A DNA stretch of 63,940 bases, counting the filler, from Diploschistes diacapsis (Eukaryota): NCBI GenBank assembly GCA_023645945.1. It is 12 parts of 12 records of this genome, joined end to end, with 100 filler letters (N's around TTAATTAATTAA, not from the genome) between each part and the next. Parts side by side here need not be neighbours in the genome. Positions count along the whole stretch, not along the records: positions 18,029 to 35,933 come from JALAIB010000431.1; 11 more parts are not named here. One strand, given 5' to 3'. The position numbers and the translations under genes are program-made. Of the stretch, positions 24,453-33,571 are shown piece after piece. Under the pieces are notes generated by a model, which was not told where the DNA came from, ran no database searches, and worked only from the letters and a program-made list of their open reading frames with translations. Every line of letters begins with the position of its first letter. The first letter of the stretch is position 1.

Positions 24453-25853
24453 TTATATCTCCGCTTTCCCTTCGTCTTGAGAAGGATATAAAGAACCCCT
24501 CCGCTCGAAATAATATGTCAAGGACATCATGAAGACAGCGGCCAGCATGAAAGAACCCGAGAAGATCCATGTGCCTTGGAATTCCTTCTGAATATCGCCC
24601 TTTTCTCGTCCGCTGGGCTGTTGAGCCGCACCACCTATCGGATTTCCGATCAGAGCACCGATAGAAGCGATCCTATACCCCATCCCCATACGGATACCGT
24701 ACTCGGACGGGCTTTTGGAAAGATTGGCGATTGTTGCGGGAGGCAAGGACACCATGTCACCGGATATGAATCCGTAGACAATCGAGATAACAACCAGACC
24801 AGGAAGATCGTGAACGACCCGTCCCACAAGGCTTGCGGCGCTCATGATACTCAGCAGGTAAAGGACATTTTCGTATTAATCCCAAGCCTCAAACTATAGC
24901 TGTCTATAAAGAAAAAAGGGACGTATACAGAACCAATCATGAGTGCGAAAGCTATAACCTGTTAGCGTGAAAGCGCCAGTTCGGAAACAACAATGGGCTC
25001 GAATATCAACAAGCCAGGGTATCCAGAGGAAGACTTGCCGATGCAAAAAGTGGTATACGCCTTATCTTTGAAATGTTTGAACTCAAACAAAAGCCCCCTT
25101 CTGCGCCCATTGGGACGAAGACGCATGATTGCTATACAGAGGAGGAGAGAAGCCAAAATCAGAATGCCAGTGCGCGGACAGCCCATGCAAAGCCGACCTG
25201 AACAAAGAGTCGCTATTCCATGAGGAGATACAGAATACCGGCTACAAACACCAACCGTAAGCACTTTGGGGAACGGCTGATCGGGACAACGACAGCCTGC
25301 CTACCCAAGCTACTCCCCGTAGCAGCGATCCCCGTGGCTATCATTCGCTTCTTTCGAAACCATAGCGGAATGATGGCAACCGATGTTAGCCCCAGTAGTC
25401 CACTCCCGATGCCCACGCAAAAGGCCTGTGCTAGCAGAATCTGCCAGTATTTGGTGCATAGGCTCAGCATGAACATGCCAATGCCGTCATGAAGGTGCCT
25501 GCGATTAGGATGAACCTCAGATACCCGGCGTCCAAGAGCCAGCCTGCAAAAACGCCTATCAGCATCATCAGACAGATCTGGGTGGACCCGATCCAGGCAA
25601 TTGTGGAGGGATCCACGGCCGTGAGAAGGAAGTCCGTATAGTATGTCTGGAAGACACCGAAGGAATTGGCGAGGCCCCTAGGGCATGTGGTGAGTCAAAT
25701 ATCGGGGCCTAGCAGCCGTTATCCCTACCAGGTGTTCGCGAAGAGAAGCCAGCTGCCCAGCACCTGAAGCCAGGCCATAACTCCGTGGTCCATCTCAATT
25801 TCATCGATTCCGTCTGTATCGGGACTCGGGGGAGAGGTTATCGAGATTGACAT
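24453..25853 (-). pseudogene. MFS monocarboxylate transporter (Mch-like), disrupted
   Basis: DHGVMAWLQVLGSW..NTW-GLANSFGVFQTYY, WFRKKRMIATGIAATGSS and YGIRMGMG..LIGNPIGG motifs. Frameshift near 25480, in-frame TAG at 25213-25215, second frameshift near 25160. Confidence 0.88.
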
Positions 25854-26560
25854 TGTCGACCTTATCTATTACGCCAATCGAGCAGGGAGGAGGTGCACGC
25901 ACCGCCATAACGCCAATAAAGGGCGGTAGTATGACAGAACTCGTAGAGAATCCGATCTCGCTTGAAATGTACAGAGTAGATTTTTATAATATATCTGCCG
26001 CAATGCAACTCTTGATCTCGAACTCGAACTCGAACATGCTCGTTTGCATGGAGTTGCGGCTTACACCCTCCTTTAAAAGTATTCTTGTGTGTCCGCCCAG
26101 AGCAACCCTACTATAATTACCCTGCTTCTTCCCACCCAACCCCCCTAAAGTTGAAAACGGGGCGGGAAAATCGATCCAGAATTAGTTTCCCTTAGTTCAT
26201 CCTTTACGGTGCAGAGCTACACTACACTCGGTGGCCGCAGAGCTAAGGAGGTAGATTGGTCCAGGAACAAACCCTAGATCTCTATATATACATAACTCCG
26301 AATAGCGTAAGACGGTAGGCCAAGTACCTCGCCTGAACTTTCTCAATAGCCTGCAATTTCAGTATCTCGACCAGAAACTCTGGACTGGCCTCATCTACCA
26401 GATAAGTAGAAAAGGGATATTACAAGAAGTGACTCCTGACCGCCATATCGTCGTTGTACTCTCCTATCAATGGCAATACCTCACCCTCTTGACAGTCCGA
26501 CTCCTCGATCTCCCCGTGTGCGGCTATGTTAATATCGGTGAAAATGTCCTTTATGGGCGC

Positions 26561-26598
26561 AGAGAGAGAGAGAGAGAGAGAGAGAGATAGAGAGAGAG
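26561..26598. repeat. (AG)n microsatellite between the transporter and ALAS genes
   Basis: Nearly pure AG run with one interruption. Confidence 0.9.
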
Positions 26599-26980
26599 GA
26601 ACTAAGGCAAAAAAAGTGGTTGGGGGAGGTTGCACGAATGCAATTTTGCTTATGATTGATACTCTCTCACGCCAGACTGGATCAGACCGCTTAAGGGTAA
26701 GCATACCACCTTATAGGCCTATTCAGGCAGACAAGGCAGATTAATGCTATAATGAAAAGCATAGTACAATAGTTGGTGCGATCTTCTCGAGTTCCTCAGA
26801 AGAACTGTAGCTTTTATGCATGCTGGGAGAACAGCAAAGAACACAACGGTCTTATAAGAAGAAGTCTCTGTAGAGCATTTTCTCGAATCCTCCTGGTTTT
26901 CTTCACCAGGAGTGGATACAAAATATGAAGAAACATATTGGTACCAGACTTGGACCAGACAGAAGCGTTCATTCCTGTGA

Positions 26981-30476: not shown

Positions 30477-31355
30477 ATGGCGCGCGAGGTTGTCACCGCA
30501 AACGATCTGGCCCCAGTAATCCAAGTCTTCGTTTGGTTCAGTCTTGTCCTCGCGATCCTGACAGTGGTTGTCCGCCTAGCCATTAAGTTGAGAATTGTTC
30601 GCAAGACCGGACTTGACGACGTGGCCATCGTAATAAGCTTGGTCTGCCCATTTATTTTCAGCGGATAGCAGGATGCTCACGGGTCCCAGCCCACAGCTGC
30701 CGAGGTCTCAGCTCAGCTTAAGGTAGATATAGTACTCTTGAAAACGCTTGTCGAAAGGGTACCTACTCTGCAACATTCCTATTCATTTGCAGCTCCTATT
30801 TCGCAAAGATTTCCGTTGTGCTTTTTATTCGGGCTCTTACAACAGCCGCCAACTATCGCAGATACGGCCGGTACCTAGGCTTCTTCATTACCCTGTGGGC
30901 CATCTCGGCCATTGCTTCCAACGCTTTCCAATGTGAACTTCCAGAGCCATGGAATGTACTGGGCGGTAAAATGCCTTGACACAGTAAGTTGTCTTCTTGA
31001 CGCAAGGCGCAATTTACTGACGCGAAGAATCTACCAGCTGGCTTGGGAGAACTACGTTGCAATTGTCAGCAGTCTCACAGACTGTCTGCTTGTAGTCCTG
31101 CCTTTCGTCATAGTATTGTCCATTCAGATTAGAAAAAAGCGTAAGATCGCTGTGATGTTTGCCTTTACTATGCGACTCACGTACGCCAAAATCCATGGAA
31201 TCCCAGAGCTGATCGGAAGGCTAATAACAGTCAGTACCGTAGCAGCATTAGTCTGTCAAATTGTTTACTTGAATGCCACAAGGTCCTCGACAGACCAGAG
31301 TCTCGCGCTCAGCCCCGTTGCGATATCGACGCAACTGGCACAGTATAAAGATTAG
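30477..31355 (+). pseudogene. Pth11-like (fungal rhodopsin-domain) integral membrane protein, internally deleted and truncated
   Basis: TM1 then VVRLAIK..GLDD; FAKISVVLFI; AFQCELPEPWN..KC; SSLTDCLLVVLP..IQI..KK..VMFAF.MR. The second TM/loop exon is largely missing and the ORF stops before the last helix. Confidence 0.75.
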
Positions 31356-31693
31356 CGTTGTGTCCTGATGCATGGTAAAGGCCCTGCGCACATTAATCGG
31401 CGCTTATTCTGGGGGTCACTTCGTACTACCGCGGGAACTCATTGCTACTTTCATTTCATTCCATGGGGTGGGTGTATGCAATGTCTCCTGCTAGATACTG
31501 CAAATGAGTAAATGAGGGTCTTGCCCTCCAACGCAATCTCGCCTGTGCGCCAATCGGCCGTTGAGTGGTATAACACTGCCGTGTATTACAGTTCGATTTG
31601 CTTTCTTTTCTTTTTACCTCTCCCTTGCATATTTCTTTCCATCATCTTCCTGTCTTCTGTGCTTCACACAAAGCCCCAGATTCGCAATCCAGC

Positions 31694-33571
31694 ATGAACG
31701 GAGTCTCCTCGACTGTCAGAGATATGCCTGCGCCGGCAGGCTAGGGGATGGAGCTGGAGCTCACATCAGCAAAGCAAAATGACGATAAGCTTTTCGTTCG
31801 GCTTGGAAAGAAACCAGTCCTCAAAGTAAGTACAAACCTATCGGTTGGACGAAGTTCAATTATCAAGTCGCTGATGGCATCGACAGCGTAACTTTGGCTT
31901 CATGTCCATTCTGGGTTTCAGCTGTACTGTTCTCGTTACATGGGAAGGATTTCTGATGCATGTTCTGTATCTTTCCCGACACGGAGAGCCTGGACTAATG
32001 TATTGCAGCGTTTTGGCTTCTGGCTTTAATAAGTGAGACTCTCTACATACCGACTTGCGAACGCTAAATTTCCTTCAAGCGGTGGACCTGCAGGCATTGT
32101 GTATGGCTTCATCTTGTTGTGGATCGGGACTTTGTCGACCTTTGCCACCCTTTCGGAATTGACATCCATGTAAGATATCTCTTTCATAGTATTTCACTAT
32201 CCTGCTCATACAATTGCACAGGGCACCGACGTCAGGAGGCCAGTATCACTGGGTTTCCATGCTTGCTCCGCCATGGTGCCAGAAATTCCTGAGTTACGTT
32301 ACAGGTGGGTATATCTCGAATCCATCGTCCTGTCCTGCCGGATCTGATAAGCTCTTCTCCCAGGCTGGTTGATCGTGCTTGGATGGCAAGCTTTTGTTGC
32401 CTCGGATGGATACCTCAACGGCCTGTTGGCGCAAGGGCTAATCGTGCTTGCCGATCCGAGCTACGATTTCAAAGTATACCACAGTGTCTTGCTTTACTGG
32501 GGTCTTATTCTTTTTTCGGTCTTGATCAACACCGTCGTCTCCAGTCTCCTCCCCAAGTTCGAAGGGCTAATCCTGATACTTCATATTACCGGATTCTTCG
32601 CGATTCTGCTTCCGCTTGTGATATTGGTTCCGCACGCCGAACCTTCCGCGGTATTTCAAACGTTCGTCAACGGTGGCAACTGGCCAACCAACGGTCTTTC
32701 GTTCTTCGTCGGCCTGCTTGGCAACGTTTTTCGCCTTTTTTTGGAGCCGATGCAGCTATCCATATGTTTGAGGAAATCCAGGGCGCTGCCGTGGTTGTTC
32801 CAAACTCCATGATGATGAGCATCCTACTCAACGGCTCAATGGGTTTCGGAATCGCTATCGCACTGCTTTTCCGTTTGGGCGATATAGACGCGGCTCTCGA
32901 GACCCCGACCGGATATCCGTTCATCGAGATATTCTATCAGGCAGTGCAGTCGGTTGCCGGGGCTTCGCTTATGACCGCCATTATTTTGACTTTGGCTGTT
33001 TGCGCCACCGTTGGCACCGTGGCATCGGCTTCGAGACAGCCCTGGTCCTTCTCACGAGATAGAGCCGTTCCTGGATGGCGTTACATTCAGCGAGTCAACC
33101 CGAAAAACCGCAGTCCCAGTCACGGCCGTTATGGTCACTACCGCCTTTTCGTATCTCCTGGCATTGATTGTCTTGGGCTCGGCAACCGTGTTCAACGACA
33201 TTGTGTCCCTGTCTGTGGTGGGACTATTTGGATCTTATTTCTTGGCCGCGTCGCTTCTGCTCCATCGTCGCCTGCAGGGGCATATCTTCCCGTACCAAAG
33301 GGACTCTACTGAGCTCGCGAACGTGCCGGGTGCGCCGCTTTCGTGGGGACCATGGCGGGTTCCGGGAGTCCTCGGCGTTGCAAACAACATCTTCACTGTC
33401 TGCTATCTGGTTGTTATATGGTTCTTCAGCTTCTGGCCCCCAGCGACGCCAGTGGAGCCATCGACGATGAACTACGGCATTGTTATGCTTGGTGGTACAA
33501 TGATTCTCAGCGTCCTCTACTATGTTTTTCGGGCCGGGACAGTGTACACGGGCCCTGTTGTAGAATTTTGA
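31694..33571 (+). pseudogene. APC-superfamily amino acid/choline/GABA permease (Hnm1/Uga4 family), frameshifted
   Basis: LGKKPVLK-RNFGFMSILGFSC..TWE, GGPAGIVYGF, SELTSM-APTSGGQYHWV, GADAAIHMFEEI, ASRQ.WSFSRD, SWGPWR and TMNY motifs. Frameshifts in a T run near 32730 and an A run near 33105. TAG at 31742 upstream of an alternative ATG at 31748. Confidence 0.85.

Follow-up and report, generated by a model that had tools for sequence, protein, structure and literature searches.

A dead five-gene island in Diploschistes diacapsis carrying a short Ser83-type 5-aminolevulinate synthase paralog and a diverged copy of porphobilinogen synthase

A 63,940-base stretch of DNA from the lichen-forming fungus Diploschistes diacapsis (assembly GCA_023645945.1; hereafter the window) contains, at positions 24453..33571, an island of five adjacent pseudogenes on one contig, coding in this order for a major facilitator superfamily (MFS) transporter, a 5-aminolevulinate synthase (ALAS), a porphobilinogen synthase (ALAD), a Pth11-like protein and an amino-acid permease. 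The island is real and dead, and its lesions are real. We consider it probable, with some room for doubt, that it is a dead accessory island, in which a short ALAS paralog with a serine residue in the position of Thr83 (Rhodobacter capsulatus numbering), a diverged ALAD duplicate and carriers once formed a module making 5-aminolevulinate (ALA) or a close aminoketone, all five genes having now decayed. Such a module would have produced ALA or the related aminoketone from succinyl-CoA, outside the regulation by feedback that governs the heme pathway, and would have passed this product to the extra ALAD, with the island transporters moving substrate or product, by import or export. Once the module had lost its use, the five genes would have drifted, gathering small indels, stop codons and changes of conserved residues, while housekeeping genes elsewhere would have kept heme synthesis going; such a gene was found for ALAD and is presumed for ALAS.

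Gene identities were assigned by Pfam searches of 87 stop-to-stop open reading frames (ORFs) of the island, and lesions were read by hand against homologues (tblastn) and three-frame prints, after removal of GT..AG introns, several of which show branch-point-like motifs. With the introns removed, lesions were left in every one of the five genes, amounting to at least 12 single-nucleotide frameshifts, plus in-frame stops, across the island. The sequence-only reading that preceded this work had described lesions in all five adjacent genes of a gap-free contig, and both Pfam and hand reading bear this out: the whole island lies inside one piece of the window (18029-35933; 17,905 bp), which holds zero N, including at 24453-33571. 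Its counting of frame changes as lesions stands in part, since at least 12 are true 1-nt frameshifts and some of those possibly counted are ordinary GT..AG introns. Two candidate single-nucleotide breaks, at 'SMCG|TVSP' in the ALAS gene and at 'IIM|VKP' in the ALAD gene, were rejected because they are such introns. The ALAS stop codon (28501-3) faces that of ALAD (28824-6), and the two genes are tail to tail with a 320-bp spacer between the facing stop codons (28504..28823), in keeping with the distance of about 0.3 kb given earlier. The two enzyme genes each form a divergent pair with a gene for a membrane protein, which is the MFS transporter for ALAS and the Pth11-like protein for ALAD (start-to-start distances of ~1.1 kb and ~0.5 kb, respectively), and the amino-acid permease gene is next along.

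The state of the sequence was compared with Logan contigs of three sequencing runs, X1 (a lichen metagenome, the one run in which all sampled words of the island occur), X2 (a rock metagenome) and X3. Four pieces of X1 contig (word depth ~100) together cover positions 21800-35900 without a single differing letter or gap, which excludes sequencing error; X1 may be the source of the reads themselves, and the match is then one to a second assembly, not to a second sample. It is therefore extremely improbable that these are the only HEM1 and HEM2 genes of the fungus and that their lesions are errors of sequencing or assembly. Such an account could point to the many indels in short homopolymer runs and to the draft nature of the genome, assembled from a metagenome into short contigs. 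Against it, contigs rebuilt from ~100x reads show no difference, some of the homopolymer sites vary in the relatives, which makes their states real alleles, ORFs of 500-690 aa occur in other genes of the window, an intact ALAD is encoded elsewhere in the assembly and the island ALAS lies outside the housekeeping clade. The sequence-only reading had itself named this case as one that would undo its account, and the X1 match, the intact ALAD (P0124, see below) and the position of ALAS in the tree contradict it. The divergent MFS-ALAS intergenic region (25761..26924) holds a (GA)n microsatellite (~26550-26605), at which the read contigs break and which was skipped as a repeat in the Logan comparison.

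X2 and X3 carry a relative of the island with other indels. Both have single-base indels at 24859 (one more A), 27205 and 30968, precisely at three of the lesions that we had inferred, and in both the frame is locally restored, so the window's states are real alleles specific to its own lineage. X3 further shows a 379-bp deletion (28989->29369) that removes the central part of ALAD, a 23-nt insertion after 30759, an 8-bp deletion at 33679 and other indels, which constitute independent decay of the same island. Divergence from X2/X3 is 2.0-3.0% in the coding parts of the island and 2.3-4.9% in its intergenic parts; in the CAF1 exon of the flank, 3 of 651 bases differ from X3. Among the 40 substitutions listed, which are those seen in both relatives, 19 fall in the ALAS, ALAD or MFS frames, 13 of them changing the residue and 6 not, and at six positions (27447, 27510, 27530, 28406, 28891 and 28930, including the arginine of the ALAS motif 'ERLRI') a residue conserved in the family is lost in the window and kept by the relatives. 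All five island genes have been drifting neutrally since loss of use. Repeat-induced point mutation was considered as the cause of decay and rejected, since the GC content (~50%) is like that of the flanks and the lesions are indels, not stops created by C-to-T changes.

The ALAS pseudogene (26925..28503, plus strand) begins with an ATG at 26925, is interrupted by introns at 26977-27023, 27248-27308 and 27714-27829 and ends with the stop codon at 28501-3. It carries a +1 frameshift at ~27205 and -1 frameshifts at ~27228 and ~27331; between the first two, eight residues are garbled and an in-frame TGA appears (27227-9). With three 1-nt indels and this TGA within 27200-27335, the gene has no open frame for a full-length enzyme. 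The Aminotran_1_2 domain (PF00155) is matched at 27296-28500 (E 1.8e-15 and 7.5e-31), the lysine motif for pyridoxal phosphate is still readable, and the best solved relatives are the ALAS structures of yeast (5TXR, 1.4e-64) and R. capsulatus (2BWN, 1.1e-55), the best 2-amino-3-ketobutyrate CoA ligase (KBL) following at 3.7e-30. Solved ALAS are thus far ahead of KBL, AONS and SPT, and the predicted enzyme class of the island gene is ALAS.

Nevertheless, this gene is not a copy of the ALAS that serves heme synthesis in other fungi, as judged by the test for a housekeeping HEM1 orthologue, in which it proved to belong to a separate clade and to have no Cys-Pro N-terminal region. Its best matches among 3057 ALAS are nine intact proteins of 481-522 aa, from Myriangium, two Colletotrichum, Neoarthrinium, Penicillium coprophilum, Hypomontagnella, Aspergillus candidus, Cladobotryum and Lindgomyces, to which it is 59-65% identical, vs 56-59% to housekeeping ALAS (56% to those of lichens). 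In a 44-row tree, obtained by a quick search and with long branches flagged, the island ALAS falls in a 10-row clade of short paralogs (support 100), which a branch of 2.07 separates from 34 housekeeping rows (support 100; 8 from lichens), and it has the short-type residue at 18 of the 24 columns that discriminate the two clades. The N-terminal region distinguishes them as well: that of the island protein counts ~50 aa and has zero Cys-Pro motifs, and none is present in the nine short-type proteins (21-70 residues), whereas all 56 full-length housekeeping enzymes have at least two (~157 aa). It is through Cys-Pro motifs in the presequence that heme exerts feedback on the import of ALAS. These observations support the view that the island ALAS is an extra paralog copy and not a plain extra HEM1.

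A further difference concerns the residue at position 83, described as a threonine 'among all ALAS' and as setting amino-acid selectivity, at least in the part of the alaremycin study considered here (PMC9356726). The island ALAS does not follow this rule: the loop 'GACSGGSRNI' is present, and its serine aligns with T83 of R. capsulatus ALAS (2BWN). 'YGACSGGSRNI' occurs in 8 of the best 120 matches, with a variant in P0008, the housekeeping counterpart being 'GAGAGGTRNI'; the serine is found in all nine intact short-type proteins (S124, invariant in alignment A1), and a threonine occupies the position in at least 95% of the 111 housekeeping matches among the same 120. Across 150 representatives drawn from a 1.84-billion-protein library, we counted 100 Thr, 13 Ser and 1 Met, with 36 representatives having no such motif. 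Four of the 13 Ser-type representatives (P0388, P0466, P0496 and P0499) also have a glycine four residues on, and with it the full signature of AlmA, the ALAS homologue of alaremycin synthesis; enzymes of this kind thus look to be quite broadly distributed among bacterial-length proteins.

In a 58-row tree (a quick search without mixture model) the fungal Ser clade lies within fungal ALAS (a 19-row clade, support 100), away from ten Ser-type representatives of bacterial length, from which it follows that the change from Thr83 to serine was independent, i.e. convergent. A bacterial origin of the short-type ALAS was rejected, since the family nests in fungal ALAS and bacterial loci are ~47-54% identical, vs 54-61% for the six highest-ranking loci of the metagenome scan (L001-L006). 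The short family thus appears, by its sequences, to be made up of paralogs that split from fungal housekeeping ALAS, without the long Cys-Pro N-terminal region and with a serine at the Thr83 position. Full-text searches within a limited literature collection returned no paper on a fungal Ser83-type ALAS clade and none on alaremycin-like chemistry or an ALA-analogue product in fungi, and the short Ser83-type family is apparently undescribed so far. As a variant of this kind, the spare first enzyme of the island may not have produced the ordinary heme precursor.

The ALAD pseudogene (28824..29989, minus strand) starts at ATG 29989, has introns at 29780-29831 and 29061-29112, stops at 28824-6 and carries single-nucleotide deletions at ~29929, ~29353 and ~29210. 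Its PF00490 match (28827-29788) is accordingly split over four reading-frame pieces (profile 25-166, 164-211, 208-243 and 243-317), in which 'DVCLCEYTSHGHCG', 'AAKF' and 'MVKP' can still be read; we take these to be the Zn-type Cys-rich metal site and the two active-site lysine motifs. An intact ALAD of 381 aa (P0124) is encoded on a separate 19,784-bp contig of the same assembly, as indicated by the organism name and locus-tag prefix that it shares with P0241, a protein 100% identical to the eIF3d of the window (386-1639). The island ALAD is identical to P0124 at 248 of 331 residues (75%), vs 83-86% between P0124 and its own orthologues. With an intact P0124 present, 75% identity to it and three frameshifts, the island gene does not qualify as the housekeeping HEM2; it is an extra copy, the normal HEM2 being elsewhere in the assembly.

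How far this copy has diverged can be seen in its violation of 11 of 168 near-invariant columns, among them the glutamine of 'YQLPP' (control median 0, 95th percentile 4). Its terminal branch measures 0.8-0.9, against a median of 0.08-0.1, and it is placed inside the housekeeping ALADs of Ostropomycetidae, in a supported set with Xylographa, Ptychographa, Trapelia, Diploschistes and one further sequence (SH-aLRT 98 in one tree; 98/93 in the other). A recent origin of the island ALAD by duplication of the assembly's own HEM2 is neither shown nor rejected, the approximately unbiased test not rejecting a sister position to P0124 (p = 0.21). The best 120 of 7,691 ALAD matches are housekeeping ALADs of Pezizomycotina, with 66-72% identity to the longest reading-frame piece of 155 aa, and the joined pieces reach at most 75% identity to intact relatives.

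The proposal of the sequence-only reading that ALAS and ALAD are dispensable extra copies is therefore upheld, for ALAD by P0124 and for ALAS by the separate paralog clade, from which we infer that a housekeeping ALAS exists elsewhere in the genome. It had also asked whether trees would place the clustered copies in a clade of their own: the island ALAS falls in the short-type clade, apart from housekeeping ALAS, and the island ALAD lies inside the housekeeping ALADs.

The serine of the short-type ALAS and the altered ALAD raise the question of whether the island belonged to a different chemistry. AlmA has a serine at the Thr83 position and condenses serine with succinyl-CoA, its S82T variant retains 0.3% of the activity with serine, and the cyclising ALAS (cALAS) of asukamycin is likewise described as depending on a serine residue, in the portion of PMC9356726 that covers these enzymes. 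By analogy, the island could have been an alaremycin-type antimetabolite cluster, its Ser83 'ALAS' joining succinyl-CoA to serine or another small amino acid to yield an inhibitor of porphobilinogen synthase, with the ALAD duplicate as an insensitive self-resistance copy and the MFS protein as exporter; we regard this as unlikely. It fits with the presence of serine in the island ALAS and in 9/9 short-type proteins, set against threonine in at least 95% of 111 housekeeping matches and in 80/80 metagenome loci, with the convergent origin of this change inside fungal ALAS and with the alteration of the island ALAD at 11 near-invariant positions, including the glutamine of 'YQLPP'. Target duplication as a means of self-resistance is common in fungal clusters.

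The alm cluster of Streptomyces (almA-almB-almC-almE) resembles the island in having a Ser-type ALAS homologue beside an MFS gene, the exporter with which that cluster ends, and in its link to porphobilinogen synthase, to which alaremycin binds (PMC9356726, in the sections seen). On the other hand, it is bacterial, and the fungal clade is a separate offshoot of fungal ALAS and not kin of AlmA; the second determinant of AlmA, Gly86, corresponds to a serine in the island ALAS, as in true ALAS; and the acetyltransferase and oxidoreductase of alm have no counterpart in the island, where neither an N-acetyltransferase nor an oxidoreductase was found by Pfam among the 87 ORFs. An ALAD gene is present in the island and absent from the four alm genes as they are set out there (PMC9356726). 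Besides, Thr to Ser is a mild change, and altered substrate use would be a prediction from sequence; the ALAD substitutions may be plain decay, two being specific to the window's lineage; and the literature collection searched yielded no known fungal ALA-analogue product. Both the Ser83 change and the ALAD copy are better accounted for by the alaremycin-like reading than by a module for ALA, but that reading lacks tailoring genes. Extended to the whole family, it would mean that the short fungal paralogs do not synthesise ALA at all and are instead a convergent counterpart of AlmA and cALAS, whose pocket is opened to serine or alanine by the Thr83-to-Ser change and whose products are ALA-analogue antimetabolites directed against porphobilinogen synthase, the island ALAD providing target-copy resistance and the MFS transporter export; this we hold to be slightly less likely still.

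The nearest precedent for an accessory ALA module is the VLB locus of Microsporum gypseum, a set of 12 genes that includes two ALAS, a porphobilinogen synthase, a porphobilinogen (PBG) deaminase, a non-ribosomal peptide synthetase (NRPS), an ABC pump and a Zn2Cys6 regulator (Zhang, Rokas and Slot, 2012; PMC3408471). As far as the account of it goes that we draw on, VLB and the island share a clustered, non-housekeeping ALAS and porphobilinogen synthase in a filamentous ascomycete, a transporter gene in the cluster, variability or loss of the locus between close relatives and unclustered housekeeping homologues elsewhere (PMC3408471). They differ in that VLB is intact and the island dead, and in that the PBG deaminase, second ALAS, NRPS, ABC pump and Zn2Cys6 regulator of VLB were not found by Pfam in the 87 island ORFs. 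Housekeeping HEM1 and HEM2 agree with the island copies in fold and catalytic motifs (identity of 56-59% for ALAS and 75% for ALAD); the housekeeping genes are reported as unlinked in the same source (PMC3408471), and in their ALAS residue 83 is Thr and the N-terminal region of ~157 aa carries two or more Cys-Pro motifs, whereas the island copies are linked, broken and placed in another clade or on a long branch. What the island has in common with VLB is thus the accessory ALAS-ALAD linkage and the instability; it is set apart by its dead state and by the absence of the further VLB genes.

The three membrane-protein genes bear on the question of carriers. The MFS pseudogene (24453..25760, minus strand; stop codon 24453-5) has three -1 frameshifts (at ~25478-88, ~25165-85 and 24859), and its MFS_1 pieces (24456-25694) lie in three frames with 19.6-29.8 bits, below the cut-off of 33.4. 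Its best solved relatives are weak (SfMCT, E 6e-4; MCT2/MCT1, E 0.16-0.59), and from these matches the protein was possibly monocarboxylate-transporter-like. The Pth11-like pseudogene (30477..31355, plus strand), with fungal rhodopsin domain, has an in-frame stop at 30665-7 and a +1 change in the A-run at 30966-9, an intron at 30984-31037 and its stop codon at 31353-5; the PF20684 fragments (30722-31352) score 26.3 and 23.7 bits, with a cut-off of 27.

The permease pseudogene (31748..33571, plus strand) belongs to the APC superfamily, its PF13520 (AA_permease_2) match at 32293-33568 being in three pieces (profile 78-196, 200-326 and 313-425; best E 6.7e-16), with frameshifts in T-runs at ~32725-45 and in the A5 run at ~33103-7 and introns at 31827-31885, 32033-32077 and 32306-32362, plus one more between ~32170 and 32220. 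An in-frame TAG at 31741 was not counted as a lesion, since the downstream ATG at 31748 gives a normal N-terminus. In a protein atlas, the MFS and permease fragments fell in generic MFS and amino-acid permease clusters only; Pfam and the atlas support the APC superfamily alone for the permease, and the Uga4/Hnm1 label of the sequence-only reading is unconfirmed. Positions 32219-32264 (permease motif 'APTSGGQYHWV') match other contigs of X1 and X2 with at least four differences, most likely because these are paralogous permease genes and not a repeat element.

Whether the five genes ever formed a functional cluster has to be weighed against the possibility that they were simply dispensable neighbours under relaxed constraint, each of which decayed alone. 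MFS, Pth11-like and permease proteins form large families with fast turnover in filamentous fungi. The enzymes differ in origin, ALAD being a local duplicate and ALAS an old, patchy paralog, several lesions are lineage-specific and recent, and Pfam detects no backbone enzyme, regulator or tailoring gene in the island, all of which would suit unconnected decay. Such an account must, however, accept extra copies of two consecutive pathway steps placed 320 bp apart, although these steps were reported as never linked in 128 other fungal genomes (PMC3408471, as far as the material consulted goes), and five contiguous pseudogenes in a window whose other recognised genes have long open frames, with a neighbour of the permease class that carries ALA in yeast, where Uga4 does so (PMC2376128, in the excerpt used, citing Bermudez Moretti, 1996); the Uga4 subfamily label is, as said, unconfirmed. 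We judge it rather unlikely that there was never a cluster.

The one-module account favoured here draws on adjacency, divergent pairing, joint decay and the observation that 117 ORFs from gene-poor parts elsewhere in the window gave no gene fragments detectable by Pfam, one UQ_con piece excepted. Several points weigh against it. The joint working of the five genes is argued from their adjacency and joint decay only, and no backbone synthase, regulator or tailoring enzyme was detected by Pfam in the 87 ORFs of the island. From its sequence, the island ALAD looks like a fast-evolving duplicate of the lineage's own ALAD and not like an old, widely shared paralog; given this, and no intact orthologue above 72% identity to the 155-aa query among the best 120 of 7,691 matches, an old conserved pairing of ALAS and ALAD is unsupported. 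A housekeeping ALAS of the same assembly was not seen among the best 120 of the 3057 ALAS matches, and 80 of 80 metagenome ALAS loci (80 kept of 590 relatives) are Thr-type (GGTRNI), with none of the short type. The comparison with X2 and X3 draws on 12 indels from a total of 124 and on 40 substitutions from a total of 451; being those seen in both relatives, they are biased towards changes on the window's own branch. Finally, the intact control on the same contig consists of two verified genes only, those for the WD40 protein and CAF1.

A single dedicated pathway, made up of all five genes and lost together, is plausible. Here the sequence-only reading, which had proposed a dedicated cluster lost as a unit, is sustained as regards adjacency, pairing and joint decay, and its joint function remains at the level of plausibility. 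It had further considered intact versions of the cluster in other fungi, a prospect weakened by the ALAD, which lies inside the housekeeping ALADs with no intact relative above 72% to the 155-aa query in the best 120 of 7,691. It had spoken of an uncharacterised pathway; this is partly known already, since two ALAS, an ALAD and a PBG deaminase have been described in one fungal cluster together with an NRPS (PMC3408471).

On the same contig, the island is flanked by an intact gene for a WD40 protein (18993-20783, minus strand), a single ORF of 597 aa with WD40 Pfam matches, and by an intact CAF1 gene (21899-23420, plus strand), with two clean exons and a PF04857 match, which agrees with the clean flanks described earlier. 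At 35150+, the end of the contig truncates a further gene, for which Pfam returned no match; its 'SEC72' label and its clean frame are unconfirmed. The contig repeat search returned zero direct repeats and only two weak inverted pairs, hence no sign of a transposon-borne cassette, and Rfam gave 0 matches in 23400-35900. A stretch of ~47 nt in the ALAS-ALAD spacer (28711-28757) recurs on several other contigs of X1 and X3, with loose ends on both sides, and is probably a short dispersed repeat.

The window joins 12 contigs by linkers of 44 N + TTAATTAATTAA + 44 N, located at 17929-18028, 35934-36033 and nine further sites. Three pieces are of ~17.9 kb (GC ~0.50), the island lying in the second, and nine are of 1012-1013 bp and AT-rich (GC 0.30-0.41); as the pieces are separate contigs, genes on different pieces are not genome neighbours. 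In the gene-poor parts (8600-15350, 16200-19000, 48200-49600 and 50300-54700), 117 ORFs gave no Pfam-detectable gene fragments except one UQ_con piece. This fragment (15155-15349, profile 89-137) lies directly upstream of a fuller UQ_con gene (15366-16262, profile 5-124) and could be an exon in another frame or the remnant of a second ubiquitin-conjugating enzyme gene. The regions 8600-15350 and 50300-54700 (4-7 kb each) hold no ORF of at least 55 aa with a Pfam match, being either gene-poor or occupied by lineage-specific genes.

The island offers what is probably a natural case of a two-step accessory pathway that died in one block and left a housekeeping copy alive; each of at least three related lineages shows lesions of its own. 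The most valuable by-product of its analysis is the short, Cys-Pro-free, Ser83-type ALAS family, which the sequence-only reading had missed and which is altered at the one residue that experiments have identified as the switch between primary and secondary metabolism in bacterial ALAS homologues. Were the antimetabolite proposal true, intact short-type loci would encode a new fungal inhibitor of tetrapyrrole synthesis, and a compound of this sort, if made in a lichen, could affect chlorophyll synthesis in the photobiont. The family gives a handle for mining fungal genomes for inhibitors of the tetrapyrrole pathway and for deregulated ALA production.

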